Part shown: piece by piece, positions 5,904 through 63,598 of the stretch
How the letters are laid out: each line of letters begins with the position of its first letter
Position numbering within the stretch: the stretch's first letter is position 1
From: an uncultured Gammaproteobacteria bacterium
Lineage (GTDB): Bacteria > Patescibacteriota > Patescibacteriia > 2-01-FULL-39-33
Reading direction: 5' to 3'
Length of the DNA: 64,000 nucleotides
Assembly (NCBI GenBank): GCA_964558935.1
Contig: CAZLFP010000001.1
Coordinates: forward strand, 147,260 to 211,259
Notes under the pieces: model-generated
What the model saw: the letters and a program-made list of their open reading frames with translations, nothing else
Databases searched by the model: none
What the model was told of the DNA's origin: nothing
Position numbers and translations under genes: made by a program

Positions 5904-5972
5904 ACTCTTGATTCTTTAAAAAATATATGATATAACTTTAGTATTGTTGAGTCAACCAGAGGAGGAAAAAAC

Positions 5973-6143
5973 ATGACTGAGCAATTGGAAGTACCTGAGG
6001 CCAAAAACACGCCTCTACCCAGGAGAGTTTGCATCACCGGTGGCATCTGTAAACACGGACACGAACTGCCAACCGAGTGCGATGGCGACTGCATGCTGGG
6101 TGCAGATAAACTGCCTCAGCCAGTGGCTGGTCAGCCCAACTAA
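5973..6143 (+). CDS. small Cys/His-containing protein (56 aa), unknown function
   Basis: SD GGAGGA lies 7 nt upstream of the ATG. The ORF MTEQLEVPEAKNTPLPRRVCITGGICKHGHELPTECDGDCMLGADKLPQPVAGQPN is locally GC-rich and is followed by two hairpin terminators. Confidence 0.35.
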   Translation: MTEQLEVPEAKNTPLPRRVCITGGICKHGHELPTECDGDCMLGADKLPQPVAGQPN

Positions 6144-6155
6144 CTCCCTCTGCTC

Positions 6156-6230
6156 CTAGATTAGTGCAACGCTAATCTAGAGCTTCCCTCCAAACCCGCC
6201 GATCTTTTCTATCGGCGGGTCATTTTTATT
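6156..6230. terminator. tandem hairpins (ctagattag-N7-ctaatctag and cccgccgat-N7-atcggcggg) followed by a T-run; terminates the small + gene and may act bidirectionally for uvrB
   Basis: Two perfect 9-bp inverted repeats; the second is followed by TCATTTTTATT. Confidence 0.6.
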
Positions 6231-8082
6231 CCGATTTATTCACATCTAAAAAATCTTCTATCTCCTTCTGAATGGTTTGCGGAGTAATCCCATGCTGCAT
6301 GTTATATTGCTGTTGTAATTCCCTTCTTCTGTCCACTTCTTTAATGGCTTTTTTAATAGAATCCGTCAAATTATCTGCATACAAAATAACCTTGCCGGTA
6401 ACATTTCTGGCAGCTCTACCCATGGTTTGCATGAGTGAAGTTTCACTCCTTAAAAAACCTTCCCGATCTGCATCTAAAATGGCCACCAAGGTCACCTCCG
6501 GCAAATCCAGACCTTCTCGCAGTAAATTAACTCCAATTAAAACATCTACTCTGCCCTTTCTAAAATTATTTAAAATCTCAGTTCTTTGAATGGTCTTAAC
6601 ATCGCTATGAATATAATCCACTTTAAAACCTTTGTTTCTTAAATATGAATCCAAATCTTCAGCCATCTTCTTGGTTAAGGTGTTAACGATCGCTCTGTCA
6701 TTATTTTTAACCACGCTTTCCAATTCCTTGATTAAATCATCTACTTGGGAAAGATTGGTCTTTTTATCGAAAACTTTTCTAACTTCAACCGGTGGATCGA
6801 TTAAGCCGGTGGGCCGAATCAGCTGCTCTACCTGCTGCTTAGAATGCTTTTTCTCATAATTCCCAGGGGTAGCGGTGGTAAAAATGACCGGACCTAATCG
6901 GTCTTCAAATTCCTTAAAGTTTAAAGGCCTGTTATCTAAAGCTGACGGCAACCTCCAGCCATATTTGATCAGAGCTTGCTTTCTGGCTCTGTCTCCTTCA
7001 TACATACCCCTGACCTGAGGTATGCCAATATGAGATTCATCTACAATCGTTAAAAATTGCGGTTTACCACTTTTGTCTTTGGGAAAATAAGCTAATAATG
7101 TGTCTGGTGCGTCTCCGGCTAATTTGCCGGTCAAATGACGTGAATAATTTTCAATTCCGTTGCAATAACCCAGAGACAACAACATCTCCATATCATATCT
7201 GGTTCTTCTCTCCAGTCTTTCCGCTTCTAGATACAATCCTTTTTTGTCAAAATACTTTAATCTGTCTTTTAATTCTGCTTTAATATTACGAACCGCTTCT
7301 TTAACTTCAGGCATGGTGGACACAAAATGCTTGGATGGAAAAATAATGGTTTCTTGAAGTTCTTCCAAAATGGTTTTTTTAAGAGTGTCCATTAGGTAAA
7401 TATGCCGAACTTTCTGGTCTTCCAATTCAACTCTATGGATAATATTGTCGGCAGCCGGTTGAATGTCAAAAATATCTCCTCTGACTCTAAACAGTCCTCT
7501 TTTAAGTTCTCCGGGAGTTCTTTCAAACTGCATTTTAACGAGTTGAGAAATTAGATCTTTTCTGACGATTTCTTGACCCACCTTCAGATGCAGTGAAGAT
7601 TTAGTATAACTGGCCGGCAAACCCAGATTGTATATGCAAGAAACCGAAGCGACTATAATCACATCCTTTCTGGTAGCCAAGGCAGAAGTTGCCTGATGCC
7701 TTAATCTGTCTATCTCATCATTGATCATGGCTTCTTTTTCTATGTAGGTATCTGTGGTTGGCAAATAGGCTTCCGGCTGGTAGTAGTCATAGTAGGAAAC
7801 AAAATAATTGACACTGTTGTCCGGAAAGAAATTCTTGTATTCTCTATACAGTTGAGCCGCCAAAGCTTTATTCGGAGCCATGACTAAAACCGGTAGGTTA
7901 AATTCTTGAATCACATTAGCCACCGTAAAAGTCTTACCGGAACCGGTTACCCCGACCAAAGTTTGGAAATCATGGCCTTTTTTAAGGCCAGACACCAATT
8001 TTTTAATGGCTTGAGGCTGATCTCCGGCTGGTTTAAAGTTAGATTTTAGTGTAAATAAGGACATTTGAGTTATTCCATGCAC
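6226..8082 (-). CDS. uvrB: excinuclease ABC subunit B (UvrB); true start probably the Met at about 8064
   Basis: FKPAGDQPQAIKKL N-terminus, Walker A GVTGSGKTFT, helicase motifs and a C-terminal UvrB/UvrC interaction helix. Confidence 0.95.
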   Translation of the reverse strand: MHGITQMSLFTLKSNFKPAGDQPQAIKKLVSGLKKGHDFQTLVGVTGSGKTFTVANVIQEFNLPVLVMAPNKALAAQLYREYKNFFPDNSVNYFVSYYDYYQPEAYLPTTDTYIEKEAMINDEIDRLRHQATSALATRKDVIIVASVSCIYNLGLPASYTKSSLHLKVGQEIVRKDLISQLVKMQFERTPGELKRGLFRVRGDIFDIQPAADNIIHRVELEDQKVRHIYLMDTLKKTILEELQETIIFPSKHFVSTMPEVKEAVRNIKAELKDRLKYFDKKGLYLEAERLERRTRYDMEMLLSLGYCNGIENYSRHLTGKLAGDAPDTLLAYFPKDKSGKPQFLTIVDESHIGIPQVRGMYEGDRARKQALIKYGWRLPSALDNRPLNFKEFEDRLGPVIFTTATPGNYEKKHSKQQVEQLIRPTGLIDPPVEVRKVFDKKTNLSQVDDLIKELESVVKNNDRAIVNTLTKKMAEDLDSYLRNKGFKVDYIHSDVKTIQRTEILNNFRKGRVDVLIGVNLLREGLDLPEVTLVAILDADREGFLRSETSLMQTMGRAARNVTGKVILYADNLTDSIKKAIKEVDRRRELQQQYNMQHGITPQTIQKEIEDFLDVNKSE

Positions 8083-8148
8083 AAAAGCGCCTGACTTGGT
8101 CAGACCTAGGGGGTATAATAATCTATTTTATTGTTTCTGGCAAGCATT

Positions 8149-8996: not shown

Positions 8997-9410
8997 TTAT
9001 TTACCTGTTGATCCAAATCCACCCTGCCCCCTGTCAGAATCACTTAATGCTTCCATTACTTCAAACTCAATCTTAGGCAAAGGTAAAACTATAACCTGTC
9101 CAATCCTATCCCCCACAGCATAATCATCTGGACCATTCTTTCTAAATCTTAACCTTAACTCTCCCCTGTAACCAGCATCCAAAACACCCACACAATTAGC
9201 TAAAGTCAAATCTGTGTTAGAGACACTACTCCTGGGAAAAACCAACATGACATAACCTTCCGGCAATTCAAAAGACAAGCCTGTTCCATACTCTACATAT
9301 TTATCTGTAACTTCTTTGGACACCGCATAAACATCCATACCAGCATCGGTGGTGTGAGCATACTTAGGAATTATCGCTTCCGGATTAAGCTTTTTGATTT
9401 TAATCTGCAT
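8997..9410 (-). CDS. dut: dUTP diphosphatase (dUTPase)
   Basis: dUTPase motifs AGMDVYA, FPRSS, GVLDAGYRGEL, RGQGGFGSTG. Start taken at MQIKIKK, immediately after the stop of the upstream ORF. Confidence 0.85.
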   Translation of the reverse strand: MQIKIKKLNPEAIIPKYAHTTDAGMDVYAVSKEVTDKYVEYGTGLSFELPEGYVMLVFPRSSVSNTDLTLANCVGVLDAGYRGELRLRFRKNGPDDYAVGDRIGQVIVLPLPKIEFEVMEALSDSDRGQGGFGSTGK

Positions 9411-9411
9411 A

Positions 9412-11214
9412 TTACCAACTACCTCCTCCGCCACCGCCAAAACCGCCTCCTGAGAAACCGCCACCGGAAGAGAAACCACTGGCACCCTTAGCGGCATGAG
9501 ATTCCACTATAATACTGTTAACCTGGGAATTGAAATTAGTCAAACCATCCGTTAAAAGGTGAGGATTAAACGATATTTGACCGCTATCCGAATACCACTT
9601 GGGTTGCTGGTTATATATACCCTCAAACTGTTTAGCCCACTGCTTTTCAACTCCTAAAGCCATGGCATATGGCAGTAACTGTTCAAAATGTTCAGGCTTT
9701 TTGGCCGGTGCATTATGGAAATTTAATCGATCTTTTTCTGCAACTGTCAAGTATGTCTTTAAACCTTCAATATGCTCTTTGACTAAAGATCCTTCTTGAG
9801 TCAAAGCCGGCATTAACCAACCAAAGATGACTATGATCAGACCAGAAGTCAGACTAGATACAAGTCCAATTAAACCAAACATATCCATCAACATAAAAGA
9901 CAGTACACCACCCAGTAAACAACCGACAACCAACCAAGCAATTCTTGTTTTTTGAGGATTAGATTTAAAAAACTTTTTTTCCTTTGTCAATGATGTGTAC
10001 AGTTGGTTCTTAATCAATTCCATATCGACAGCAAAACTCTTCAGCTTAGAAATTTTAACCCCTTTTCTCTGCTCCTTAAACAAGCCGTCTAAAATATGTC
10101 GCTGATGTTTATTGGCCAACACTCCTTGGCCATCCCAATCTTTGAGACTGTCCAGCTCGTAATCCACTTTTTTACCTAGAATTTGTTTTTCTTCAATTCT
10201 TTTGATTTTAAGAAAACCTAAAACAGCCAAATGAATGATTTCAGCTGAAATATCTTTATTATTGGCAGATTGGTCAAAAACAGTTCCAACCTCAGCCGGA
10301 GATAAATTATCCGGAGCTTCAAATTGAGTTACAATCGTACCGCGACCAGATGCATCCTTGCCTTGCCTGGTCCATAAATAATACATTACAACCAAAACAA
10401 AAATTGGTAATATTACAATTATATTGTCTTGCAATACAGCCATGATCTTTTCGAGCGTACTGGGTTCGGCTACGATACCCTTTGGCCAACCTAGAACCAA
10501 AGTCATGCCCTGTCCCGGTTGCAAACTGCCAAAATTAGAATTGGTGAAGCTAAATTTATTAACCCCATCTGCTTCAACCAGGTAATTAGATTGACAGGGA
10601 GTATCGCTACCCGGTTTTCCAATGTAGCAAGCTTGCTTAAGATCTGACTCAGCTATCTTGTCAGGCAAGACGACCAAAGCTTCAACACTTAATATGGGGG
10701 CTGGCCAATCATGACCGGTAATATTCCAATACAATTCATCATGATCTTTGAAATAATTAATCGTTCTGTCCAGGGTATAATCAATGACATAAGTTAATTG
10801 TCCGGTAACATATTGATCCGGATCTCCAATCCTAATATGTAAATTCTGACCTTGTTGGGAAACTTGATGAGTAATTGTTTGACCATCTAAATCCGTTACA
10901 TTGATCTGCGAAATCCGTAGATTAAAATTACCATCCCTGGCTCGGTATTTAACCGGAATATCTCGGTAGATGCCATGTTTCTGGTTTTGTCCAAAGTCGT
11001 AAGCAATGGTTTCTTGAACTTGGATGCTACCATCCTCATAAACCTGGATTTGAACAAAAAAATCCGTAATACTCTCTTCCAGACAAGAGCTGTCTGTGCA
11101 AATCGCCTGAACCTGAACAGGTAAAAAGAGCAGCCAAGTTAGAAATAAGGTAATGAATATTTTGTGCATATTAGTAATTAATCTGTTTAGGTAACTTAAG
11201 CTGAGCATTTGCAA
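9412..11214 (-). CDS. DUF2207-like membrane protein with N-terminal signal/extracytoplasmic domain, TM segments and a Gly-rich C-terminal tail
   Basis: Signal peptide, a large N-terminal domain, a cluster of TM helices and a C-terminus GFSSGGGFSGGGFGGGGGGSW, an architecture typical of the DUF2207 family. Confidence 0.5.
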   Translation of the reverse strand: MQMLSLSYLNRLITNMHKIFITLFLTWLLFLPVQVQAICTDSSCLEESITDFFVQIQVYEDGSIQVQETIAYDFGQNQKHGIYRDIPVKYRARDGNFNLRISQINVTDLDGQTITHQVSQQGQNLHIRIGDPDQYVTGQLTYVIDYTLDRTINYFKDHDELYWNITGHDWPAPILSVEALVVLPDKIAESDLKQACYIGKPGSDTPCQSNYLVEADGVNKFSFTNSNFGSLQPGQGMTLVLGWPKGIVAEPSTLEKIMAVLQDNIIVILPIFVLVVMYYLWTRQGKDASGRGTIVTQFEAPDNLSPAEVGTVFDQSANNKDISAEIIHLAVLGFLKIKRIEEKQILGKKVDYELDSLKDWDGQGVLANKHQRHILDGLFKEQRKGVKISKLKSFAVDMELIKNQLYTSLTKEKKFFKSNPQKTRIAWLVVGCLLGGVLSFMLMDMFGLIGLVSSLTSGLIIVIFGWLMPALTQEGSLVKEHIEGLKTYLTVAEKDRLNFHNAPAKKPEHFEQLLPYAMALGVEKQWAKQFEGIYNQQPKWYSDSGQISFNPHLLTDGLTNFNSQVNSIIVESHAAKGASGFSSGGGFSGGGFGGGGGGSW

Positions 11215-12646: not shown

Positions 12647-12902
12647 TAAGACGTACTTAAAATTGTAAGGTTAGAGATTGTTACGGAAGAGATTGAAATA
12701 TTTAATTTTGTAATTAGGATATTTAAAAACCGTCAATTGCTAATAAAAAGTTATATTTTAAGGGTGTGTTTTGTGATATAATGGATTGTATTACATGATA
12801 ATATTGTCTTAGAAACTTGCTGTTATAATTAGAAATACTACAAGCTCTTGACAGAATAATGCAATATGATAGTAAGAAAGTAGGGATTAACCAAACGATA
12901 GC

Positions 12903-13625
12903 ATGATAACCCAAAATCAGATCCTTAGAATTAAGAAATACATAAAGGATCATACAGAAAAAAGAAAAATTATCATAACTGGCGGACATGCCATGGTTAG
13001 TGGTCAAAAACTTCATTTAAACGAAGGTACTATAAAATCTTTCGAGTCTGCAGTTAATCTCTATTTGAAGCTAAAAAAAGAAGGGCAAAATGTATCACTT
13101 GGCATCTTATTGAATAATATCGGATGTGATTGTTCGGGCAAGGATAAATGCACAAAGCAGACAATAAGTTTTAATGAAAATTCCTTTACTTTGCCAATAA
13201 ATTACAAGCGGACTTTAAAAAAGAAAAATATCAATGAGCATCAATTATTGATCATATGGGAGAAGTATATTAGGAATAGATCAAAAAAAGAATTTCTAAA
13301 GAGCCTCAAAAAAAAGGAAACTAGAGAGCGGATTACTTTAATAAATGGTGACTTGTGGTTAAAGTCTGACTTAAGAGGAAGAATTATTTTAACTAGAAGT
13401 CGAAATAAAGATAAGTACGGCGCTCCAGCTTGCCCTCTTATAATGGCCGGCCTGTATAAGCATCTTGAAAAAATGGGTTTTGGATTGTCAATTAATTGTT
13501 ATTATATTGGTAGTGATAATTTAACTAACATACCAAATCATAATGTTATCGAAAAAGGAATGGATGTTTATAATGAACTGTTTAAAGAAAAAGAATTGAA
13601 AGTTTTTAACTTATACTCCTCTTAA
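12903..13625 (+). CDS. hypothetical protein, first gene of the AT-rich island
   Basis: Lys-rich ORF with no recognisable motifs beyond weak GGHAMVSG; start codon uncertain. Confidence 0.4.
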   Translation: MITQNQILRIKKYIKDHTEKRKIIITGGHAMVSGQKLHLNEGTIKSFESAVNLYLKLKKEGQNVSLGILLNNIGCDCSGKDKCTKQTISFNENSFTLPINYKRTLKKKNINEHQLLIIWEKYIRNRSKKEFLKSLKKKETRERITLINGDLWLKSDLRGRIILTRSRNKDKYGAPACPLIMAGLYKHLEKMGFGLSINCYYIGSDNLTNIPNHNVIEKGMDVYNELFKEKELKVFNLYSS

Positions 13626-13642
13626 ATTAGTTTAAGGTCCCT

Positions 13643-15088
13643 ATGAAAAAAAACAACTTCTATATTTTTATAGAAAATCAAAAGCTTAGATCAAAAACCA
13701 CGAACTCTCTATCTGAAATCGAGAATGATCTTAATCTAGAATTTTCACTTTATAATTTGAATCAGGAAGATTTACCAGCAATAAAAAACAAATCTGGTTT
13801 GTTTATACTTTCCACTGATCCAAATAGTAGATCAATTGAGAGTTTTACTATCAATAATAATTATGACGCTAACTCTTGTCGACTTTTTGTTTTATATAAT
13901 CAAAAATCAATAAAAGACTTTCTTGATTTAGTTGATAAAAAAGGTGAACAATTTAATAATATTAATAATAATTTTGATTATATTATATTTAATTGTGATC
14001 CAAAATATTATAACTGGCAAGATAAGAAAAAAGAATATAATAAGTTCATTTTTTTAGGATTTGATGAAGATTTTGACAGCAATCAATACTTTGATTTCCG
14101 ATTTGACATTAGATATCAGAAGTTTCTAAAAAATCTAATCCTTTTTCCTGATATAAAAATAAAGTCCTCCAGTGGATTTCCAATCAAGGCCATGATAGAG
14201 CCAGTAAGAGCATGTAATTTACGTTGTCCTTCATGTCCAATTGGATCTGGAGTAGCAAGTAATTTTGATAAACTCACCTTTGATAATTTTCGGATAATAA
14301 TCGATAAAATTTATCAAACCATTGAAGATATCTCTCTTTTTAACTACGGCGAACCTCTTTTACATGAAGATATTGATAAAATGATTTATTATGCTAAAAA
14401 AAAAGGTATAAAGAAAGTTAAAATACATACAAATGGAATGTTACTAGATGATAATATTGGTGAGAAAATAATTGAGTCTGGTTTAGACAGTTTGAGTATA
14501 TCAATCGATGCTGCAAGTAAAGAATCATATGATAAGTATCGTGTTGGTGGCGATTTTGAACAATTAGTGGAGAAAGTTAAGGACTTTCTGAGACTAAGAA
14601 AGAGAATGAAATCTGGAAAACCATCCGTTAGGGCTCAGTTTATTATCATGAGTCACAATGAGCATGAAGTTAAAAAGTTTTATGAAATGTTTAAGGAAAT
14701 CGGAGTAAACAAAATAAGATTTAAAACTTTTAATGCTCATATGGATGGTTCAGATGATCATAAGAATAAACAATTTTTACCCCTGAATAAAAAATATTCA
14801 AGATACTCAGATAATGAAGCTCATATTATTAATAATAAATTTAAGAGTAATATCTGTTCATGGCCATGGGAAAATGTAGTTATTAATTCTAATGGAGATA
14901 TAGCTCCTTGCTGCTATGATTATAATGCAGATTATAAACTGGGAAATATTTTTGATGACGATTGGTGGAACAACCCAAGTAGAAATATTTTTCGAGAGAA
15001 AATGGAAAATAGTCCAGATGAAATCGAGATGTGTAAGTATTGTGCTGTCGGAATTCCAGATTTAAGCTATAAAAAAATTGAAATATGA
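13643..15088 (+). CDS. radical SAM / SPASM-domain enzyme with an about 180-aa N-terminal extension of unknown function
   Basis: Canonical CxxxCxxC (CNLRCPSC) preceded by EPVRA, and a C-terminal Cys-rich SPASM-like region (CSWPWEN...GDIAPCCYDY...CKYCAV). Confidence 0.8.
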   Translation: MKKNNFYIFIENQKLRSKTTNSLSEIENDLNLEFSLYNLNQEDLPAIKNKSGLFILSTDPNSRSIESFTINNNYDANSCRLFVLYNQKSIKDFLDLVDKKGEQFNNINNNFDYIIFNCDPKYYNWQDKKKEYNKFIFLGFDEDFDSNQYFDFRFDIRYQKFLKNLILFPDIKIKSSSGFPIKAMIEPVRACNLRCPSCPIGSGVASNFDKLTFDNFRIIIDKIYQTIEDISLFNYGEPLLHEDIDKMIYYAKKKGIKKVKIHTNGMLLDDNIGEKIIESGLDSLSISIDAASKESYDKYRVGGDFEQLVEKVKDFLRLRKRMKSGKPSVRAQFIIMSHNEHEVKKFYEMFKEIGVNKIRFKTFNAHMDGSDDHKNKQFLPLNKKYSRYSDNEAHIINNKFKSNICSWPWENVVINSNGDIAPCCYDYNADYKLGNIFDDDWWNNPSRNIFREKMENSPDEIEMCKYCAVGIPDLSYKKIEI

Positions 15089-16677
15089 AGCAAAATTTCG
15101 AATTTTTGTTTCAAAATGGCAAATTAATATGTAAATTCTTTGATGCTGGTATACAGAGTAAAATTTTTTGTGTTGAAAACGAAAATGGTAAATACAAACT
15201 TATTGATGAAGATATCACGGATCCAAATTTACATAAAGGCCAATTTCCTCGAAGTGGGTTTCTATTCTTTAACTCAAAAAATGATCAATTAACAATTTCT
15301 CCGGATGATTGGGGTAGAGTTCCGATGTTTTTTTACAGCCAGAATAATTATTTATTTTGTACTAATACATTTTCAGAGATACTTGAGAAATTTGATTTAG
15401 AAATAGATAATAATCAAATACTTCAACAACTATTTTTTGGGCATTCTTTTTCTGGAAAGACTATTTTTAAAAAAGTTTTTGTGTTACCACCACATCAGAA
15501 AATAGTTTTTAAGAATGGTAACATGAATATGGAAAATAATGATTTGAATATTTACGGTATCGAAGATAATCATGATCAGTCAATTGAGCAGTTAGATTAT
15601 GAAATTAGTAAAGTATTTTTTGAGTACTTTGACAATGCCAAGAATAATGAATTCACACTATCTCTTACTGGCGGTCTTGATTCTAGATTATTAATGGCCA
15701 AATACATTGAATATAGATCCCATAAAATCAATTGCTTTACTTATGGAACCAGGAAAGATAGAGACGTGTTGATAGCCAGGCGTATCGCTCAAGATTATAA
15801 ATATAATCATAACTTTTTCGAAATAACTCCAGATGACTTCATTAAAAATGCTGAAGAGTATATCTTGTTTACAGGTGGAACTAATTCCTTAACTAATTCG
15901 AGAGCGTTTCATATTTACCGTGAATTTAGCTCTGATCAAATTATTGTCAACGGCTTTGGTGGTGATTTGACTTTGGGTGGTGGGTTTCACAAGCGTGAGC
16001 TTCTAGAACATAATGACAATGATTTTTTGATGAGTTATCTATTTTCAAAGTTTTGCAAAATTGACCCAGATTCATTTAGTAATTTGTCTAATATTGGTAT
16101 TCGTGACTTACAAAACATGTTTATCAATGAAGTTGAGCCGCTTTTTACTTTAAATACTCAGCATGGAAGCCTTCCATTAAAAGCAGACAAAATTTTGTTA
16201 CTGTCTAAAGTCATCTTTTATGGTTATTGGAGTGTATTATTTTCTGCTCAAAAGGCGAAAGTAATAACACCCATGTTTGATCCACGCTTAAATAATTATT
16301 TTTTATCAATTGATTCAAAATCAAGATATAAACACACCTTATACAAAAATTATTTTATTAATAAATTTCCCGAGTTAGCAAAATATCCTTGGCAAAAATT
16401 TGGCGTTAATTTATTCGATGAGAGGTCGCCGATTCTTGATCAAGATAATAATAGAAGAATACCTTATCAGTCTTTTTGGCAAGAAGATCTAAGATTGTGG
16501 ATACGAGACGTACTATTTTCTAATAATTCATACTTAATTAATGTGATTAATATCAATAAAATAAAAAAAATGCTGAATGATAAAAAACCCTCAAATGATT
16601 GGGCAGACTTTATAGGTCAAATTCTAAGCATTGAATTGCTGATAACCTATTATAAGAAAATTAAATTGAAAAGATGA
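15085..16677 (+). CDS. asparagine synthetase (AsnB)-like PP-loop ATP pyrophosphatase domain protein lacking the N-terminal glutaminase cysteine
   Basis: PP-loop motif LSLTGGLDSRL; residue 2 is Lys not Cys, so there is no class-II glutamine amidotransferase nucleophile. The start overlaps the upstream stop (ATGA). Confidence 0.7.
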   Translation: MKQNFEFLFQNGKLICKFFDAGIQSKIFCVENENGKYKLIDEDITDPNLHKGQFPRSGFLFFNSKNDQLTISPDDWGRVPMFFYSQNNYLFCTNTFSEILEKFDLEIDNNQILQQLFFGHSFSGKTIFKKVFVLPPHQKIVFKNGNMNMENNDLNIYGIEDNHDQSIEQLDYEISKVFFEYFDNAKNNEFTLSLTGGLDSRLLMAKYIEYRSHKINCFTYGTRKDRDVLIARRIAQDYKYNHNFFEITPDDFIKNAEEYILFTGGTNSLTNSRAFHIYREFSSDQIIVNGFGGDLTLGGGFHKRELLEHNDNDFLMSYLFSKFCKIDPDSFSNLSNIGIRDLQNMFINEVEPLFTLNTQHGSLPLKADKILLLSKVIFYGYWSVLFSAQKAKVITPMFDPRLNNYFLSIDSKSRYKHTLYKNYFINKFPELAKYPWQKFGVNLFDERSPILDQDNNRRIPYQSFWQEDLRLWIRDVLFSNNSYLINVININKIKKMLNDKKPSNDWADFIGQILSIELLITYYKKIKLKR

Positions 16678-17816
16678 AAATATTTATTATAAGTAGGCAC
16701 TTTTTACCGCATTATGGTGGAGCGGAATTTCAGCTTGATTTTTTGGCCAGATTATTAGTAGAGTCGGGACATGAAGTCGAAGTGCTTACTAGTAGATTAC
16801 AAAATTCTAGAAAGATTGAAAATTACCAAGGCTATAAAATCTTAAGATTTGGTAGTGGTTATAGCAAGAAAGGAAAAGTTCAGGCCTACAATGAAATTCT
16901 AGCATACATTAGAAAAAATCGGGATTTGGATTGGGTATATTGGTCATATTCGGGATCAGAAAAAGAAATTATTATCGCTCAATACGAGTTACTTAAGTAT
17001 TTGCGTCACCAAGGTGTAAAAAGAATCATGAGAGTAACATCTTCAGAAAGAATTAGACAGGCAAAGGAAGATTATCCAGAGTTTATTAATGAGGTTGATA
17101 AAGTTAATTATATTGTTACATTAAATGAAGGAATTAAAGAAGAATTATTAGGTGCTGGAGTTTCTGGTGATGGAATAATAATGATGAATAATGTCGTAGA
17201 TGTTGCTATGTTTAAAAAAGTGTCTAAGCAAGAGAAAGAATTATTAAGACAGAAATTAGGATTCGGATTAGACGAAAAAATATTTATTTATACTGGTCGT
17301 TTTTCTCCTAAAAAAAACTTACCACTTCTGACTACGCTATGGTATGAATTTGGTTATCACCTTAATGCTGAAATGAGACTATTAATTGTAGCAAATGATA
17401 ATCTTGGCATCGAAGACTTAGGAGAGCGTCAAAAAATAGAATCCTGTATTAAAGGCAAGCAAATAAAAAATATAAATATCATTGCAGTAAAAAAACGGGA
17501 AGAGTTAGCTAAATTGTATCAATTATCAGATGTATGTGTTAATTTTTCTACTACTGAGGGTATGAGTAATTCACTGCTTGAGGGGATGGCTTCTGGTTTA
17601 GTGATTATGTGTAGTAATATAATCGCTAACGAAAATATTGTCAAACAGAATGTAAACGGTTATTTGTTTAGTTTAGACAATAATATTGAGATCAAAACAG
17701 CTTTTGAAGGAGCAATGCAGAAAAATGAGCAGATAATCGAGAATAATGTAAATAAAATTATGAGAGATCATTTAGTCAATGACCAACTTAATAAATTAAT
17801 TCTAAAAATAATATAA
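16674..17816 (+). CDS. glycosyltransferase family 4 (GT-B fold)
   Basis: C-terminal motif FSTTEGMSNSLLEGMASGLVIM, typical of GT4 retaining transferases; overlaps the upstream stop. Confidence 0.8.
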   Translation: MKIFIISRHFLPHYGGAEFQLDFLARLLVESGHEVEVLTSRLQNSRKIENYQGYKILRFGSGYSKKGKVQAYNEILAYIRKNRDLDWVYWSYSGSEKEIIIAQYELLKYLRHQGVKRIMRVTSSERIRQAKEDYPEFINEVDKVNYIVTLNEGIKEELLGAGVSGDGIIMMNNVVDVAMFKKVSKQEKELLRQKLGFGLDEKIFIYTGRFSPKKNLPLLTTLWYEFGYHLNAEMRLLIVANDNLGIEDLGERQKIESCIKGKQIKNINIIAVKKREELAKLYQLSDVCVNFSTTEGMSNSLLEGMASGLVIMCSNIIANENIVKQNVNGYLFSLDNNIEIKTAFEGAMQKNEQIIENNVNKIMRDHLVNDQLNKLILKII

Positions 17817-17819
17817 TTT

Positions 17820-22468: not shown

Positions 22469-22696
22469 CTAAACCTCTTGTATGCTGTCTGCCGCCTTCT
22501 GCCACATAGGCAAAGACGTCGCCATGTTTGTCCCTATCACTTGTAGCCAAACGACACCGGGTGCAGCCGGATTGGGTATTTCTTTGACTTGAAACACTCC
22601 ATTCGGTTTTAGGAAATCCCTTTGCCAGGGTTCCTGGTTTGGATTGACAATCACCTCGAGTTCCTGCTTAAGTCTGATTCGATACAGCTTAGCCAT
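22469..22696 (-). CDS. small GC-rich protein (75 aa), unknown function
   Basis: Strong SD GGAGGTG lies 6 nt before the ATG. The ORF MAKLYRIRLKQELEVIV... has its own terminator. The track ORF starts 3 codons earlier at a GTG with no spacer. Confidence 0.45.
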   Translation of the reverse strand: MAKLYRIRLKQELEVIVNPNQEPWQRDFLKPNGVFQVKEIPNPAAPGVVWLQVIGTNMATSLPMWQKAADSIQEV

Positions 22697-26933: not shown

Positions 26934-27089
26934 CTACATAACGTGAATGCACGTTCCAGGCTCTTCCCGGAACATGATCACAGTGCAGTCCATAATCAGT
27001 TCTCGAAAGACTTTGAGAGCTTTCATGAAGCTATCAAAAGTACCTTCGAACTCAACCAACTCTGCATCATACCCCTTGACCGTGTACAT
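26934..27089 (-). CDS. small ORF (51 aa) with consensus SD, unknown function
   Basis: GGAGGT lies 7 nt upstream of the ATG (MYTVKGYDAELVEFEGTFDSFMKALKVFRELIMDCTVIMFREEPGTCIHVM). A hairpin ggcacatcact-ttt-agcgatgtgcc (26890-26914) lies downstream. Confidence 0.3.
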   Translation of the reverse strand: MYTVKGYDAELVEFEGTFDSFMKALKVFRELIMDCTVIMFREEPGTCIHVM

Positions 27090-45691: not shown

Positions 45692-45847
45692 ATGGACAAG
45701 TTGAACCCGAACCAGATCCGAAATCTGCATGCCGAACAAACCATGTCCAAAGGATCTTGTCCCGTCAAGATCCGCATTACTACTTCCCAAGGCACGTTTG
45801 TGGGAATAGTACATGTCAAAGCAGTCACAACCGTTAGCTCTAAGTAG
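45692..45847 (+). CDS. small GC-rich ORF (51 aa), unknown
   Basis: SD AGGAGGA lies 5 nt upstream of ATG (MDKLNPNQIRNLHAEQTMSKGSCPVKIRITTSQGTFVGIVHVKAVTTVSSK); followed by an 11-bp perfect-stem hairpin. Confidence 0.3.
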   Translation: MDKLNPNQIRNLHAEQTMSKGSCPVKIRITTSQGTFVGIVHVKAVTTVSSK

Positions 45848-46967: not shown

Positions 46968-46969
46968 TC

Positions 46970-47199: not shown

Positions 47200-47200
47200 C

Positions 47201-49970: not shown

Positions 49971-49990
49971 GAGTCTCCCTAGGGAGACTC
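49971..49990 (-). terminator. palindromic hairpin spanning the stop codon, followed by a T-rich tract on the minus strand
   Basis: gagtctccc-ta-gggagactc; minus-strand downstream sequence CTTTTTATTGCTAAAAT. Confidence 0.5.
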
Positions 49991-50302
49991 AACAGGATGT
50001 GCTTTGAACTGGCAAGGATTAAACTTACCAGACTTACCTTTTAAATACAGAGCTCGAGGCTCAACTTGGACTACCGTAAAGACCTGGCCGGTCTCAATAT
50101 TCTCTACCTGCATACCGGGACAAAAACCATTCTCGGTATGAGCTTGAGTCATTCGCTTCTGTGCATTCCGACAGGCCTGACGTGTCCGAATCTGATGAGC
50201 TTTATCAGATTCCTGACGCAAAGTCGTTTCAATCGTTTCCAAACTGGCCAGCCGCTTGCCTCCACTCATCTGACTGCGAGTATATCTTCCGCTACGAGCC
50301 AC
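49979..50302 (-). CDS. GC-rich hypothetical protein (about 107 aa; GTG start after SD AAGGAGG)
   Basis: SD AAGGAGG lies 7 nt upstream of the GTG; no motif recognised; the ORF track extends to 50329 with another GTG. Confidence 0.4.
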   Translation of the reverse strand: MARSGRYTRSQMSGGKRLASLETIETTLRQESDKAHQIRTRQACRNAQKRMTQAHTENGFCPGMQVENIETGQVFTVVQVEPRALYLKGKSGKFNPCQFKAHPVESP

Positions 50303-51800: not shown

Positions 51801-51854
51801 AATACAGATATATTGTTATTCTATGGTTGCAACTTAAACCTAGGAGGAAACGTC

Positions 51855-52049
51855 ATGTTGCAAACTGTCTCGAAACTGTATCAGGAAATAACCCATGGCT
51901 ACCACAGCATCATCCAAGAGGAGCTGGACTACATCAGACGTCTTAGACTATATCTGCTCCATGCCTCACTTGTCTGCCTGTTCTGGTACATAGTTTTTGG
52001 TGGACCCACTTACCTTATCTACTACTGCCTGAAACACGGCTTGATCTAG
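51855..52049 (+). CDS. small membrane protein (64 aa)
   Basis: SD TAGGAGGA lies 6 nt upstream of the ATG; one or two hydrophobic helices (LHASLVCLFWYIVFGGPTYLIYYCL). Confidence 0.45.
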   Translation: MLQTVSKLYQEITHGYHSIIQEELDYIRRLRLYLLHASLVCLFWYIVFGGPTYLIYYCLKHGLI

Positions 52050-52059
52050 GGGGTATGAC

Positions 52060-52452: not shown

Positions 52453-52465
52453 ACTCTTCCAAGAG

Positions 52466-53845
52466 TCACTCGCGATGTGGCTCTTTTTTATTGACTAACT
52501 CTTTGGCCAGAGTGTAAATATTCCCGGCTCCCAAAAGAACAACCGCATCATAGCTCGAAACCAATTCCGGAAGAGCTGCTTTGGTCTGTTCTAAATCGCC
52601 CACATACTTCAACTGTGCGGCTTGAGCCAGCTTTTTTGCACTGACAGCATAATCTTCAGGCTTTTCTCGGCCGGCAACATAGAAAACATCTGTCAGCATC
52701 ACATGTTTTAAACCTTGTAACTCGGCTACAAACTGATTGAATAATTGTTTTGTCCGGTTGAGTTGGTGAGGTTGGAAAATGAACAAAATCTTTTTTTGAG
52801 GATAAAAGTCGGTCATAGCCTGAACAGTCTGTCTGACTGCCGCCGGTGTGTGAGCATAATCCGTTAATATCTCTTTACCTTGATATAATCCCAATCTTTC
52901 CAGCCTCCGCCATACTCCGTCAAAGTCAGACAGAGCAGTTTGAATAGTTTTAAAATCAATCTTTAAAGTCAAAGCGACAGCGGCGGCTGCCAAGGAATTA
53001 TATATATTATATCTGGCCGGCACTTTCAAATTAACCCGGCCTAAAGACTGGCCCAGATAATGCAGATCATAGCTTTGCTGCTGCTGATCCAATCTGACAT
53101 TTACAGCCTGCACGTCGGCAGGATGCTCAAGGCCGTAAGTTACCAGCTGAGCTTGTAAATCTTTCACTACTTCGCAACTGTTAGCATCATCTGCATTAAC
53201 CACTACATAGCCAGTTGGAGGGACTTGTGACAAATACTGTCGGAATGTCTGTTTGATATCAGCCAGATCAGTATAACAATCCAAATGGTCCTCTCGAATG
53301 TTAGTTATAACCGCCACTTGAGGCGAATAATTTAAAAAAGCACGCTGGTATTCATCACTTTCAAAAATAAAATAATCGCTCTGACCCACTCTGGCATTGC
53401 TCTGCAAGTATTTGACTTTGGCACCAATTAAAATATTGGGGTCTTGCTCAGCTTTTATAAAAATCAAACCGGTCATGGCAGTGGTGGTGGTTTTACCATC
53501 TGTTCCGGAAATGCCAATGCCATATTTAGCTTGAGTCAACAAACCAAGCAACTGAGGATATGTTATGGTGGGAATGCCCAACTGCCTAGCTTGTTGCCTT
53601 TCAGGATTAGATTCCGGTACAGCTACGGAATACACCATCAAATCTATACCAGCCACAATATTATCTTTCATTTGAGGTATTTTAACTTCAATACCCTCGT
53701 GTTCTAAGTCCTGAGTTATTTCCGACTCTGTCATATCACTGCCTAAAACCGTCTTACCCATCTGTCTTAAAATTCGAGCCGCAGCAGATATACCAATACC
53801 TCCAATGCCACAAAAATAAATTGTGCGTATTTTATGTAAATCCAT
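52466..53845 (-). CDS. murC: UDP-N-acetylmuramate--L-alanine ligase (MurC)
   Basis: Rossmann N-terminus IYFCGIGGIGISAAA and Mur ligase P-loop GISGTDGKTTTT. Confidence 0.9.
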   Translation of the reverse strand: MDLHKIRTIYFCGIGGIGISAAARILRQMGKTVLGSDMTESEITQDLEHEGIEVKIPQMKDNIVAGIDLMVYSVAVPESNPERQQARQLGIPTITYPQLLGLLTQAKYGIGISGTDGKTTTTAMTGLIFIKAEQDPNILIGAKVKYLQSNARVGQSDYFIFESDEYQRAFLNYSPQVAVITNIREDHLDCYTDLADIKQTFRQYLSQVPPTGYVVVNADDANSCEVVKDLQAQLVTYGLEHPADVQAVNVRLDQQQQSYDLHYLGQSLGRVNLKVPARYNIYNSLAAAAVALTLKIDFKTIQTALSDFDGVWRRLERLGLYQGKEILTDYAHTPAAVRQTVQAMTDFYPQKKILFIFQPHQLNRTKQLFNQFVAELQGLKHVMLTDVFYVAGREKPEDYAVSAKKLAQAAQLKYVGDLEQTKAALPELVSSYDAVVLLGAGNIYTLAKELVNKKEPHRE

Positions 53846-56081: not shown

Positions 56082-56141
56082 AAAATTTAGCTTATTTTAG
56101 CTATTATTATATATAATACCATATTTATTAAACTTTGGCTA

Positions 56142-56170
56142 TTGACAAATATTCAATAGTATGCTATACT
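56142..56170 (+). promoter_or_regulatory. sigma70 promoter (TTGACA-17-TATACT) driving the GC-rich ncRNA
   Basis: Read directly; predicted TSS about 56177. Confidence 0.6.
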
Positions 56171-56177
56171 TGCAATT

Positions 56178-56773
56178 ATGTTCATCGGTAAAGGAGACCG
56201 GTGGCAAAACCAGGTGAAGTCTGGTTCCTTAATAACCAAAGGACGCCGGACACAATGCCCAATGGGCAAGGAGTATTACTCCATGGCGCATGAACGAGCA
56301 GGTCCGATGACAGCACGGATTAATACCAGCTCGACCACCGTGGGCGACGGCTCCGTCTAGCACGGGGCCTGGATCACAAAGAAATCGAAAGGGACAGGAC
56401 CATGGTTAAGCTCCAAATCTGGGGGCATCGGACTACAAGATTGGCGCATCAAGACATGTAAGATGCATTGACGGATGTTAGCCAATTGAGGGAAACCGGT
56501 GTCCCTGATTCCACCCACCGAAAAAATATGTTCTCTAGGAGGTTTGGCTGGGGGGTCATGACAATCCGCGAAGCTTGAGCCTGTGAGGCAACGCTCGATC
56601 GCGACGAGCAAATGACGCCTGAAAAGCAGAGCCAGGCAGCGGGACAAAACGGCACGCCGACGACCGGCAAACGATTACAGCCGGGGGCGATACAGCCGCT
56701 TCCCTCGCCATTCCTCTAAAATGGGGCATCTTCTAAGCGACGAAACGCCAGAAGCTCTGCCCCTTTCTTTTTT
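56178..56773 (+). ncRNA. rnpB: structured GC-rich RNA, most likely RNase P RNA (rnpB, type A-like, with insertions); the 3-prime end includes an intrinsic terminator at 56723-56773
   Basis: No credible ORF; GC far above flanking DNA; own promoter and double terminator. Segments resemble M1 RNA in the same order: GAAAGGACGCCGGAC...AAUGGGCAAGG (P4 5-prime/J4-5), GGAUCA...GAAAGGG (J11/12-P12), GGUUAAGCUCCA (compare GGUAAACUCCA), GCUUGAGCCUGUGAGG (compare P15 GCUUGAGCCAGUGAGCG) and GACGACCGGCAAACG (compare ACAGAACCCGGCUUAUCG, the P4 3-prime strand). Confidence 0.5.
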
Positions 56774-56798
56774 ACCGAATTAATCTCGGTATTTTTTT
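56774..56798 (+). terminator. second intrinsic terminator after the ncRNA
   Basis: accga-attaatc-tcggt followed by ATTTTTTTAT. Confidence 0.6.
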
Positions 56799-56907
56799 AT
56801 TGCCAAAAAACATACGATCCTCTAATATATAAAACACTGTGGCTGTTGACTTAGACTAGTATTCCGAGAGGTTAGTCCAAGATAGTCTAGCAGTCACAGT
56901 ATTTTTT

Positions 56908-58275
56908 TTACACAGTATATTTCTGACCATATTCCGGAATCACTCCTTCAATGCCTAATTTCTGTTTTAAACCATCCTTAATCATCAAAGCCGGTTCTTC
57001 TTCACCGTGCACCACAAAAACCTGTTTAGGTTTAGGACGAGTCATCATCTTAACCCAATGCAATAATTTGGGCTGGTCAGCGTGAGCAGAATAGGCTCCA
57101 ATGGCATCGATCTTAGCTTTGACTCTCACCTGTTCTCCCAAAATCTTAACCTGTTTGGCTCCGTCAAACAACTTTCTGCCCAAAGAACCATCCACTTGGT
57201 AGCCAATGAAAAGTAATTGATTATTAGGATCATTTAAGTACAACTTCAAATGAAAAGGAATTCGACCTCCCACGCACATACCAGAACCGGCAATAATTAC
57301 CTTGGGTGGCTGTATGCCATTAATTCTTTTAGATTGGCGACTGCTACTGGTAAACTCAAGGCCTGGAAATTGGAAAATATCATCTCCGGCTTGCATTAAT
57401 TTTTGAGATTCTTTATCAAAATAATGTAAATAATCTTGGTAAATTTTAGTCGCCCTAATGGCTAAAGGTGAATCTAAAAAAACCCTGGTATCTGGCACCA
57501 ACCGATTTTCAATTAAATAGTTTAATTCATACAATACTTCTTGAGTTCTTTCCAAAGCAAAAGAAGGGATCATTAAAACTCCTTTCTGGCCTACAGATTG
57601 AATAATCGCTTCTTTTAACATCCTAAGCCTTAATTCAGCTGGCTCATGTATTCTACCGCCATAGGTCGCTTCCATAACCACATAATCTGCACCGTCAATC
57701 ACGCTGGTATCTTTTAACAAAGGAACCGGCGAATTGCCCAAATCACCTGAAAAAACTAATTTCTTCTCTTGGGAGCCATCCTTAATCCAAACTTCAGCTA
57801 TCGCCGAACCTAAGATATGCCCGGCATCTCGTAATTTGAATCTTAGTTTGGAATTAATTTTAATCTGCCGATCATATTTCAAAGGTACAAAGAGATTGAT
57901 CAAATCTCTGACATTTTGACGGGAATAAGGAGCGGGTCGATTCTGACTCTTGGCTTCTTTTTGGGCAATACGCGCTGAATCATACAGCATTAGATATGCA
58001 AAATCTTTAGTTGGCTCAACACAATACACCTTGCCTCTGAAGCCATCTTTATATAACTTGGGCAACCGACCGGCATGATCCATATGAGCATGAGTCAGTA
58101 TGACAAAATCTATTTCCTTGGGATCAAAAGCAAACTCATCCCAATTTCTACTGGCATAAAAATCTCCACCTTGGAAAATCCCACAATCTACCAAAAACTT
58201 AACCGAATCTGTTTCCACTAAGTGGCAAGAGCCAGTCACTTCTTGGCAAGCACCATGAAATGATAATTTAATCAT
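56908..58275 (-). CDS. MBL-fold beta-CASP ribonuclease (RNase J-like), short form
   Basis: HAHMDHAG metallo-beta-lactamase motif, MIKLSFHGACQEVTGSC N-terminus and a beta-CASP region; 455 aa. Confidence 0.7.
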   Translation of the reverse strand: MIKLSFHGACQEVTGSCHLVETDSVKFLVDCGIFQGGDFYASRNWDEFAFDPKEIDFVILTHAHMDHAGRLPKLYKDGFRGKVYCVEPTKDFAYLMLYDSARIAQKEAKSQNRPAPYSRQNVRDLINLFVPLKYDRQIKINSKLRFKLRDAGHILGSAIAEVWIKDGSQEKKLVFSGDLGNSPVPLLKDTSVIDGADYVVMEATYGGRIHEPAELRLRMLKEAIIQSVGQKGVLMIPSFALERTQEVLYELNYLIENRLVPDTRVFLDSPLAIRATKIYQDYLHYFDKESQKLMQAGDDIFQFPGLEFTSSSRQSKRINGIQPPKVIIAGSGMCVGGRIPFHLKLYLNDPNNQLLFIGYQVDGSLGRKLFDGAKQVKILGEQVRVKAKIDAIGAYSAHADQPKLLHWVKMMTRPKPKQVFVVHGEEEPALMIKDGLKQKLGIEGVIPEYGQKYTV

Positions 58276-61736: not shown

Positions 61737-62795
61737 TTAAATATTCCAAGCGCCCCTGTCCATTAAAAAAATAACCAAGCCAATAATCGCCATCATGGCT
61801 CCAATCACCCAAAAACGCATTACAACTTTCGCTTCGGGCCAACCAATGGCTTCAAAATGATGATGAATGGGGGTGGATAAAAAAACTTTTTTACCATGTC
61901 TTAATTTTTTGGAAGTCACCTGAATAATAACCGAAGCAGATTCAAGTACAAACAAAAAACCAATGATCGGCAAAAGCAACACAGAATTGGTTAAGAGTGC
62001 AATAATGGCTAAAGTTACTCCCAAAGACATGGCTCCGGTATCCCCCATAAAAAACCGAGCCGGTGTAATGTTAAACCATAAAAAAGCGAGCAATGAGCCA
62101 ATAATCACTCCGCAGAAAGCCGCCAAATCATATTTACCCTGGACAAAAGCGATACTGCCAAAAGATAAAAAGGCAAAAAGCAGAGTACCACCGGACAAAC
62201 CATCTAAACCATCTATTTCATTAACAGAAAAAGCTGTCGCTACGACCACAAAAATCACAAACGGAATAAACCACAACCCCACATTGTAGGTGGCTAAAAA
62301 AGGAATCCGGATAAAATCCCATTCCAATTTAAAATAAAACCACCAGGCCGCTACGATTGCAATGACTGTGTACACAAACAGGCGATGTCCCATAGACAAA
62401 CCGCCGCCATACGGTCCGATCTTTCTGACATTCAAATAATCATCCACCAAACCAACCAGAGCCGCCGCCACCAAAGCTCCCAAGGGTAACCAAGTTTGCG
62501 ATCGAGACAAAAAATTCAATTTGGAAAACTCCCCGTTGAAGAATTGAGATAAATAAAAGAAAGCCAAAGCAATGACCAATGTGGTTATCCAGATCAATAA
62601 ACCGCCCATAACAGGTGTGCCAGACTTTTTCTGATGCAATTGACTCATAATTGGAGCCCTGTCTGAACTTCGAATCTGCTTACCCAATTTAAACTTATAC
62701 AAAAAATGAGTTAACACAGGAGTCCAACCAATAGCCATGACAAAGGACAATAAGGTTAAAAAAAAGATTTTAATCACAAAGAAGTCAATATCCAT
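61737..62795 (-). CDS. mraY: phospho-N-acetylmuramoyl-pentapeptide transferase (MraY)
   Basis: NEIDGLDGLSGG, NITPARFFMGDTGAMSLG and HHHFE motifs; 10 TM helices. Confidence 0.9.
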   Translation of the reverse strand: MDIDFFVIKIFFLTLLSFVMAIGWTPVLTHFLYKFKLGKQIRSSDRAPIMSQLHQKKSGTPVMGGLLIWITTLVIALAFFYLSQFFNGEFSKLNFLSRSQTWLPLGALVAAALVGLVDDYLNVRKIGPYGGGLSMGHRLFVYTVIAIVAAWWFYFKLEWDFIRIPFLATYNVGLWFIPFVIFVVVATAFSVNEIDGLDGLSGGTLLFAFLSFGSIAFVQGKYDLAAFCGVIIGSLLAFLWFNITPARFFMGDTGAMSLGVTLAIIALLTNSVLLLPIIGFLFVLESASVIIQVTSKKLRHGKKVFLSTPIHHHFEAIGWPEAKVVMRFWVIGAMMAIIGLVIFLMDRGAWNI

Positions 62796-62797
62796 AC

Positions 62798-63172
62798 TTA
62801 CATGTTAATATATACGATCAAACTGCCGGCAATTAATAAAATAACATTCACCAACACCACATTAGCTGACAAAAAGTAGCTTAAAATCTCATGTTTAAGA
62901 TACATGTAAAAAGCTAATAAGGTGTTAAAAATGACACACACCAAGCCCAGTACTGGTAGTAGAATCACAGCCTGCCAGCTAGTTAAAGAACTGATACCAA
63001 AATAAATATTATATTGAAAAATAATATAATCCTGACTCTGGTAGAAATTGGTAATTAAAACCAACCACAGAATGATGTTTAACAACAAGCCCAAGAGTAA
63101 ACTGATCACAATAAACCGGTTGCGTCTGGCAGGACTGGTTTTAATATTTTGATATAAATTCAACCACACCAT
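62798..63172 (-). CDS. small membrane protein, unknown
   Basis: 3-4 hydrophobic helices; starts the minus-strand operon with mraY. Confidence 0.4.
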   Translation of the reverse strand: MVWLNLYQNIKTSPARRNRFIVISLLLGLLLNIILWLVLITNFYQSQDYIIFQYNIYFGISSLTSWQAVILLPVLGLVCVIFNTLLAFYMYLKHEILSYFLSANVVLVNVILLIAGSLIVYINM

Positions 63173-63315
63173 AATGGCTTGATTTAGTAATTATTATATA
63201 GATTTTATAAAGATTTGTCTATCTATTGACAAAATCCAAAAATCATGTTAGATTGTCGAAGTCTGATGCATGGTGTATCAGATTAAATGTTACTCTAGAT
63301 ATAAGGAGTAGATGG

Positions 63316-63441
63316 ATGACAGAAATGACAGAGGCGTTTGAACTGGTCGAAATGTTCCTGAACATGCTGGCCGAGCTAGTCAGCAATGTCTTCGGCATGG
63401 ATCTGTGGAGCTTTTTCGAAGCTCTAGCCGGTATCCTCTAG
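63316..63441 (+). CDS. small anionic amphipathic peptide (41 aa)
   Basis: SD AAGGAG lies 7 nt upstream of the ATG; MTEMTEAFELVEMFLNMLAELVSNVFGMDLWSFFEALAGIL; promoter TTGACA-17-TAGATT upstream. Confidence 0.3.
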   Translation: MTEMTEAFELVEMFLNMLAELVSNVFGMDLWSFFEALAGIL

Positions 63442-63598
63442 GATCCAATCGTCTCAATTGACCTACCTCACCGCAGCCGTTCTGTGTGTGGGGAGTTTTA
63501 TTCTATCTAGCCTCTTGACAGATCTTAATAATTATGATAATTTACAAAATCAACTTAAATCTCTTAAGTTAGATAATAGCTAAATTTAAATAAATAAT

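Follow-up and report, generated by a model that had tools for sequence, protein, structure and literature searches.

The question raised by this locus is whether a set of short, GC-rich open reading frames (ORFs), scattered among the housekeeping genes of a bacterial chromosome, forms a distinct class of genes. The locus is a stretch of 64,000 nucleotides (here called the window) of contig CAZLFP010000001.1, positions 147,260 to 211,259 of the forward strand, in assembly GCA_964558935.1, which GTDB places in the Patescibacteriota. A first-pass annotation described at least ten short ORFs in the window, each with raised GC, a near-perfect Shine–Dalgarno (SD) sequence and its own terminator, and proposed that they are highly expressed or independently regulated small proteins, or recently acquired material. 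All of these ORFs are present. We name them here as nine units, S1–S9, of which S4 (30079-30391), S6 (46785-47164) and S8 (51855-52452) have two cistrons each, giving 12 cistrons that code for proteins of 41–130 residues (Table 1). Two starts were corrected: S7 starts at the GTG at 50302, and S6b probably at the GTG at 46970. The products of the units are unrelated to one another. We consider it likely that the nine units are genuine, separately transcribed genes, which together form a lineage-specific, SD-dependent accessory layer of small proteins on a chromosome of the Patescibacteria (candidate phyla radiation, CPR).

The window has a GC content of about 39%, and the majority of its core genes are on the minus strand. 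They include uvrC/A/B, dut, dnaX, cysS, secA, mutM and uppP, together with the dcw cluster from mraZ to murB, and rplJ/rplL with an L10 leader. Among genome and metagenome collections, the nearest matches to the secA locus are in metagenome-assembled genomes of Patescibacteria, with SecA identity of at most 70%. An independent Logan assembly (L170), from the same population in SRR7048221, matches the window at 45388-46902, the S5/S6 region, with 99.93% identity, and an assembly artefact is therefore excluded there. Most of the small ORFs had been thought to be missing from the available ORF calls; however, the public record includes eight of the 12 cistrons and gives them the same SD-guided starts. 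The other four (S4a, S4b, S6b and S8a) are missing from the public protein collection and are apparently unannotated.

Signals and codon usage of small and core genes

The strength of the SD was calculated gene by gene as the energy of its duplex with the anti-SD, using 55 core genes of the same window as the comparison set. The distribution is bimodal and separates the two sets: the 12 small cistrons average -10.9 kcal/mol, and the core genes -0.8 kcal/mol (p = 2e-7). All 12 small cistrons pair at -7.7 kcal/mol or lower and 11 of them at -8 kcal/mol or lower, a level reached by one of the 55 core genes. The GGAGG-type motifs lie 5–8 nt before the starts, inside the 4–10 nt that define a canonical SD cistron. 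The description of these SDs as near-perfect is therefore right overall, with S8b and S9 having weaker versions.

Every GGAGG in the window was listed on both strands. The number of intergenic occurrences is 14–16, varying with the placement of gene starts; nearly all of them precede one of the small ORFs, and 10 lie upstream of the start of an ORF of at least 50 residues. The spacing of 5–8 nt given in the first-pass annotation is among those seen. Within the 7 kb of intergenic DNA, the combination of an SD, a start codon and an ORF of at least 40 residues occurs nine times, compared to an expectation of 0.18 and a maximum of 2 in 1000 dinucleotide shuffles.

There are 18 stringent terminator sites in the window, defined as a hairpin followed by a T-run, and eight of these close a small-ORF unit. 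A dedicated terminator is thus present in eight of the nine units, and S9 has only a weaker, imperfect hairpin. Promoter-like hexamers are clear in seven of the nine. Taken with the SDs, these private signals support the earlier suggestion of a distinct, independently regulated class, in the sense of small protein genes that are independently transcribed and translated.

The core genes are quite different. The SD scan and the positions of the -10 boxes both bear out their description as having weak or no SD and often being leaderless: they lack an SD, and many have a -10 box 6–25 nt from the ATG, the distance being 6 nt for dnaX and cysS. A -10 box so close to the ATG implies that the mRNAs are leaderless, or have short leaders without an SD. 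The dnaX arrangement (TATAAT, 6 nt, ATG) is kept in a contig from a sister genome (L162, described below). Boxes at 6–12 nt from the ATG were seen for dnaX, cysS, murF, hpf, a sulfotransferase gene and mraY (for example at 22340-22376 and 30004-30030). The sole core gene with a strong SD is dut (9410-9450, minus strand). Its SD, GGCGGAGGAGGT, lies where the upstream DUF2207 gene encodes a poly-glycine C-terminus, and because the motif consists of Gly-Gly codons of that gene, its position before dut is probably a coincidence.

The small ORFs have a GC content of 0.45–0.54 compared to 0.34–0.42 in their flanks, with the exception of S6a (0.40), so that the local rise in GC that first drew attention to them is real in all but this case. 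Per gene, the values are 0.48 for small and 0.38 for core genes (p = 6e-7). The excess is located at third codon positions: GC at third positions (GC3) is 0.56 in small and 0.36 in core genes (p = 3.5e-7), while GC1 and GC2 do not differ significantly, and GC3 is greater than GC2 in 11 of the 12 cistrons. Since the excess is confined to third positions, the units look like coding sequences with a different codon usage. The shift in codons is coherent, as seen in CTG (0.40 in small vs 0.16 in core genes), GAC (0.61 vs 0.29) and TTA (0.07 vs 0.36); GTC, AAC and ATC are also raised. The sequence evidence indicates that the small ORFs are genuine protein-coding genes.

Homologues, gene order and predicted products

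When 1.8 billion representative proteins were searched exhaustively with HMMER, homologues other than the proteins themselves were found for S2, S3 and S7 only: P0010 for S2 (E 2e-8), P0009 for S7 (E 1e-9), and P0011-13 for S3 (E 8e-5 to 4e-4). The conservation that the first-pass annotation proposed to look for is therefore seen for three cistrons, and the other nine had no homologue. No match was obtained when the 12 proteins, concatenated into one query, were compared by word index with 5.8 billion proteins. With tblastn, the small proteins had no match in phage records and nothing at E<=0.1 in 160 secA-centred genome and metagenome loci. Scans of viral contigs (IMG/VR) were empty for S2 and S7.

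P0009 is encoded on contig L161 directly upstream of secA, which is the position of S7 in the window, and P0010 on contig L162 directly upstream of dnaX, which is the position of S2. The two contigs, each about 0.9 kb long, come from one ENA sample and represent a sister genome (ERZ27252234). Each gene is preceded by a GGAGG SD and followed by a terminator of its own, and a TATAAT promoter is present for P0009 as well. In GC, each exceeds the adjoining core gene (0.47 vs 0.35 for P0009, and 0.50 vs 0.37 for P0010). In the flanks, the SecA fragment has 83% and the DnaX fragment 89% identity with its counterpart in the window, and synonymous divergence (dS) is 1.7–2.3, which is saturated. S7 and S2 are 34–41% identical to their orthologues, the value for S2 being 41%. 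Their nonsynonymous divergence (dN) is 0.84 for S7 and 0.49 for S2, compared to 0.12 and 0.085 in the flanks. The comparison of substitution rates for S2 and S7 shows a reading frame that is kept and a dN some 6–7 times that of the neighbours. SD, terminator and raised GC3 have all been retained across saturated synonymous divergence. Because S2 and S7 occupy the same loci beside flanks that are saturated at synonymous sites, the two genes are older than the split between the two genomes, and are not recent imports.

The relatives of S3 are distributed differently. Two are in phage genomes from IMG/VR, 109 and 128 kb in size (L171 and L172), at 41–44% identity; in these the GC of the gene agrees with that of the phage, and in one of them, of 46% GC, the GC3 of the copy is 0.55. 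Other relatives are on AT-rich contigs in which every gene is SD-led. There is also an S3 homologue in a second, unrelated genome of GC 0.335 (L167 4200-6210 and L169 935-2726, from JGI 3300004210 and 3300004209), which has SD-less UvrD, PheRS and AspRS genes. Here it is one of five clustered small genes with SDs, of which four have a GC of 0.42–0.51; two Cys-rich peptides and FeoA are also encoded in the cluster. On sequence grounds, the dichotomy between core and small genes is repeated in this genome.

The closest long relative (L001; SecA 69% identical, GC 0.33) shares its gene order with the window between ftsW and the gene at 37.8 kb. Its murC-murB gap is about 130 bp, leaving no room for the S8 unit of about 600 bp, and its DUF212-mutM gap is 52 bp, so that S5 is absent. 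The hpf-secA and secA-mutM slots contain other, unrelated AT-rich genes. In a further relative (L081), the two slots that correspond to those of S5 and S6 are occupied by small ORFs that are SD-led and GC-richer; one of these is Cys-rich, and they have no sequence similarity to S5 or S6. Small SD-led ORFs were seen in L081, L083, L120 and L024 in a crude survey of all the fetched loci, which was too noisy to quantify. The comparison with L001 and L081 shows that the slots themselves are kept, whereas what they contain is replaced at family-level distances.

Scans of the small proteins with Pfam, PHROGs, NCBIfam and PADLOC gave nothing above threshold. Their Cys content is 3.9%, compared to 0.9% in the core proteins, and S1, S4a, S4b and S6b have zinc-ribbon-like arrangements of Cys residues, with paired CxxC in S4a and S6b. 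S6b has two CPxCNGxG motifs. Its resemblance to the Anti-TRAP and DnaJ CXXCXGXG families is weak (E 6e-6 to 2e-5, 25–27 bits, where the Pfam cut-offs are 32–33 bits), and it scores 24 bits against NCBIfam RtpA, for which the cut-off is 65. S8a, S8b and S9 are hydrophobic peptides. The AlphaFold2 model of S7 (mean pLDDT, the predicted local distance difference test, of 75) has a long helix and a C-terminal SH3-like barrel, in which the pLDDT is about 89.

The AlphaFold2 model of S3 (pLDDT 74) has a β-β-α-β-β arrangement, and its best fold match in the PDB is the T4 antitoxin Dmd (5hy3_B and 5i8j; Foldseek probability 0.94, E 0.22, TM-score 0.57–0.63). The two proteins are alike in size (about 55 residues) and topology, and Dmd is a phage protein. 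However, the sequence identity is 10%, the E value is no better than 0.22, and a profile search of PDB sequences with S3 did not recover Dmd; no toxin of the RnlA/LsoA type is known here, and none was sought. The predicted Dmd-like fold is therefore only a lead.

Origin and role of the small genes

As an SD-dependent accessory layer, the units would probably work as follows. The core genes would start translation independently of an SD, from leaders that are A/U-rich and very short or absent. The small genes would have a leader of 30–50 nt, through which the 30S subunit would be recruited by canonical pairing of SD and anti-SD. An intrinsic terminator would close each unit, so that neighbouring operons would be undisturbed. 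The units fill intergenic slots whose content depends on the relative examined, some being inherited within the genus (S2 and S7) and some probably coming from the phage gene pool (S3). Two or three of the predicted products are membrane peptides, several are Cys-rich and zinc-ribbon-like, one has an SH3-like barrel and one a Dmd-like fold.

For this the SDs would have to be functional, with a 16S rRNA that retains the anti-SD. We infer that this is so, given that GGAGG is conserved in the S2 and S7 orthologues across saturated divergence, which implies a working anti-SD. Around their starts the small genes have a higher GC than the core genes and fold somewhat more stably (-7.2 vs -5.1 kcal/mol, p = 0.014), and it may be that the SD compensates for starts that are too structured for the default pathway; the observations fit this idea but do not prove it. 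The raised GC3 would presumably be maintained in one of three ways: the mRNA may be under selection, gene conversion at recombining slots may be GC-biased, or the genes may be replaced again and again from a pool of higher GC.

Several points weigh against this reading. No rRNA gene was found within the window, and the 3' end of the 16S rRNA is hence outside it; CPR lineages with reduced detection of the anti-SD have been described, and a subgroup of Parcubacteria is reported to be without the motif (PMC9297842). No clear private promoter was found for S2 and S4. The difference in start-region structure between small and core genes is modest. For nine of the 12 cistrons no homologue was detected among the 1.8 billion proteins, and for these nine the case for coding is made from the SD, the ORF length, the phase of the GC excess and the Cys motifs. 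Finally, the orthology of S2 and S7 is supported by two contigs of about 0.9 kb from one sample.

The alternative that survives best is that all of the units are recent horizontal imports: cassettes derived from a phage, a plasmid or another SD-using donor with a GC of about 50%, and not yet ameliorated in SD, codon usage and GC to those of the host. The model for such cassettes is the moron of lambdoid phages, an autonomous unit of promoter, ORF and terminator between conserved genes. The likeness is considerable. Each of our units is a small ORF or pair of ORFs of atypical composition, with its own terminator and, clearly in seven of nine, a promoter-like site; units stand between genes that are direct neighbours in relatives, and are missing in L001; in GC3 and codon usage they are similar to a genome with some 50% GC; most of the units are ORFans; and S3 has the phage relatives described above, including one in a phage of suitable composition. 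However, the units are on a bacterial chromosome among uvr, dnaX, cysS, mutM, fts, sec and mur genes and not in a prophage or other mobile element, and no integrases, flanking repeats or target duplications were found around them within the window. The 1.8 billion representative proteins, the phage records and IMG/VR yielded neither a donor nor a near-identical copy. At least two units (S2 and S7) are stably inherited at the same locus in the sister genome beside saturated flanks, and the GC3 of both copies is well above that of the host, so that their composition has not converged on it. As an account of all nine units, recent import is possible but rather unlikely. The earlier suggestion of recent acquisition thus divides: it fits S3, on account of its phage family, and perhaps the nine orphans, with the absence of units from L001 in its favour, but not S2 and S7, which are positional orthologues with SD, terminator and raised GC kept.

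The units might instead be native, highly expressed genes, as had also been suggested, in which the strong SD and C-ending codons arise from selection for translational efficiency. The near-consensus SDs are what this would predict, as is the shift toward NNC codons in the two-fold families. High expression in the window is best represented by rplJ and rplL, and these have no SD and a GC3 of only 0.31 and 0.28 respectively; the style of the small genes is therefore not the style of high expression in this organism. Given also the fast evolution of the small genes and their lack of conservation past the genus, we regard this explanation as very unlikely.

It is even less probable that the units are not protein genes at all, and represent structured non-coding RNAs, or decayed remnants with chance ORFs. 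GC-rich islands often mark structured RNAs in AT-rich genomes, a nearby island (56150-56800) has no ORF and folds unusually well, and nine cistrons have no homologue. On the other side are the phase-specific GC excess; the combinations of SD, ATG and ORF at some 50 times the chance frequency; the homologues of S2, S3 and S7, in which the frame is kept through in-frame indels; and the duplicated CPxCNGxG motif in S6b. The folding z-scores of the small units range from -2.1 to +0.8, as for ordinary coding sequences, and a structured-RNA reading of the ORF units was rejected on this ground.

Cargo of a defined mobile system (integron cassettes with attC hairpins, miniature inverted-repeat elements or type I toxin–antitoxin loci) is brought to mind by the single small ORF followed by a hairpin and by the hydrophobic peptides S8a, S8b and S9, but is scarcely tenable, given that the dissimilar hairpins are followed by T-runs in the manner of terminators, that hairpins and flanks share only chance 9-12-mers and host promoter boxes with no repeats or attC-like R and L boxes, that the units are dispersed and not in arrays, that no integrase was found in the window, that PADLOC gave no hits, and that most products are soluble Cys-rich proteins.

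Two further comparisons help to place an SD-dependent accessory layer among known systems. In the SD-poor Bacteroidia and Flavobacteriia, rpsU keeps a strong SD. As in those bacteria, the core genes here are nearly free of SDs and a handful of genes has a near-consensus SD; here, however, the exceptions are about a dozen fast-evolving orphan small proteins rather than a ribosomal protein, and are also marked by GC at synonymous sites. The units share with lineage-specific ORFans their short length, lack of a known family, fast evolution, distinct composition and location in variable intergenic slots. ORFans are usually AT-richer than the host; the small units differ in being GC-richer, and in their different mode of translation initiation.

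A more speculative extension, to which we give little weight, is that there are two regimes of initiation: an SD-less, near-leaderless one for the core, and an SD channel for fast-evolving, often zinc-binding small proteins whose synonymous sites are actively held GC-rich, and which would form a regulon responding to anti-SD availability or mRNA stability. Its logic would be comparable to that of the bS21/SD circuit of Flavobacteriia.

The small proteins of CPR bacteria are largely unannotated, as is the case for four of the 12 here. Within the window, the combination of a strong SD with high GC3 picks out the small genes cleanly, and ordinary genes have neither. If this dichotomy holds genome-wide, it would serve as a practical rule by which small genes can be found in lineages without SDs, would be indirect evidence that the anti-SD still works in these lineages, and would offer a natural system for asking why some genes resist the AT mutational pressure of the host. 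The units also indicate that inserted, insulated mini-units are tolerated in conserved operons, the dcw cluster among them.

The units and neighbouring features of the window

The features of the 12 cistrons are collected in Table 1.

Table 1. Position, signals and composition of the small cistrons (numbering of the window; blank cells, no entry)
Cistron	Coordinates	Strand	Product (residues)	Location	SD	Promoter-like site	Terminator	Composition and record
S1	5973..6143	+	56, 4 Cys	antisense between uvrA and uvrB	AGAGGAGG, 5958-5965, 7 nt before ATG	TTGATT-N17-TATAAC, 5908-5936	6194-6220	GC 0.54, GC3 0.54; called in NCBI record
S2	22469..22696	-	75	between type IV coupling protein (T4CP)-like ATPase gene and dnaX	GAGAGGAGGTGA, GGAGG at 22709-22705		22396-22423	GC3 0.53
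S3	26934..27089	-	51, predicted β-β-α-β-β fold		GGAGG, 27100-27096	TTGACA-N17-TATAAT (perfect), ~27139-27167	26890-26914	
S4a	30239-30391	-	50, zinc-ribbon-like, CPRC/CRHC	overlaps S4b	GGAGG, 30404-30400			GC3 0.61
S4b	30079-30249	-	56, zinc-ribbon-like, CNC/CPEC	ATG 8 nt ahead of S4a stop	AAGGGAG upstream		30046-30073 (S4 unit)	GC3 0.58
S5	45692..45847	+	51	between DUF212 gene and mutM	GGAGG, 45682-45686, 5 nt before ATG	TTGACT-N17-TATACT, within 3' end of DUF212 gene	11-bp hairpin, 45829-45856, stop codon inside	
S6a	46785-46967	+	60		46773-46777			
S6b	46970-47164 (probable GTG start)	+	64		46959-46963		hairpin, ~47171-47213 (S6 unit)	
S7	49979..50302	-	107, GTG start	between hpf and secA	AAGGAGG, GGAGG at 50314-50310	TTGTCA-N17-TATATT	49971-49990, overlapping stop codon	
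S8a	51855-52049	+	64, hydrophobic	S8 unit antisense between murC and murB	GGAGG, 51843-51847	TTGACA-N17-TATTCT (S8 unit)		GC3 0.62
S8b	52060-52452	+	130, one transmembrane helix		AGGGGG, 52048-52053		52461-52485 (S8 unit)	GC3 0.59
S9	63316..63441	+	41, acidic and hydrophobic		AAGGAG, 63303-63308	TTGACA-N17-TAGATT	weaker hairpin and T-run, ~63463-63502	GC3 0.67; called in NCBI record

In the dcw cluster of the window, a gene for a β-CASP metallo-β-lactamase RNase (56908-58275, minus strand) and a GC-rich non-coding island (56082-56907) are present between murD and ftsW, whereas in L004, L007 and L009 ftsW directly follows murD. Within the gap between ftsW and the RNase gene, the region 56137-56800 (plus strand) reaches a GC content of 0.64 and contains no SD-led ORF. 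On the plus strand it has a promoter-like site (TTGACA-N17-TATACT) and a hairpin and T-run terminator. The predicted folding energy of this strand is -233 kcal/mol, compared to -199+/-6 for shuffled sequences (z -5.6), and its two halves have z-scores of -3.2 and -1.8; the minus strand has a z-score of -1.2. The island matched no Rfam family, the sole hit being the raiA-hairpin at E 0.09, and had no homologue in the fetched loci; we regard it as a candidate for a structured RNA, about 620 nt long.

A compositional outlier in the direction opposite to the small genes is found at 12900-20120 (plus strand), an AT-rich island of seven SD-less genes with GC 0.28–0.33 and GC3 0.22–0.30. These include genes for radical-SAM-like and asparagine-synthase-like proteins and for glycosyltransferases. 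The gene at 22771-25320 (minus strand) encodes a membrane-anchored protein of 849 residues with ATPase domains of the TrwB/TraG/VirD4 coupling-protein type, and is conserved beside core genes in the Patescibacteria relatives L007-L011 and L083. Upstream of rplJ, the L10 leader noted above is at 41886-42020 (minus strand; Rfam RF00557, 53 bits) and contains an attenuator-like hairpin at 41902-41918.

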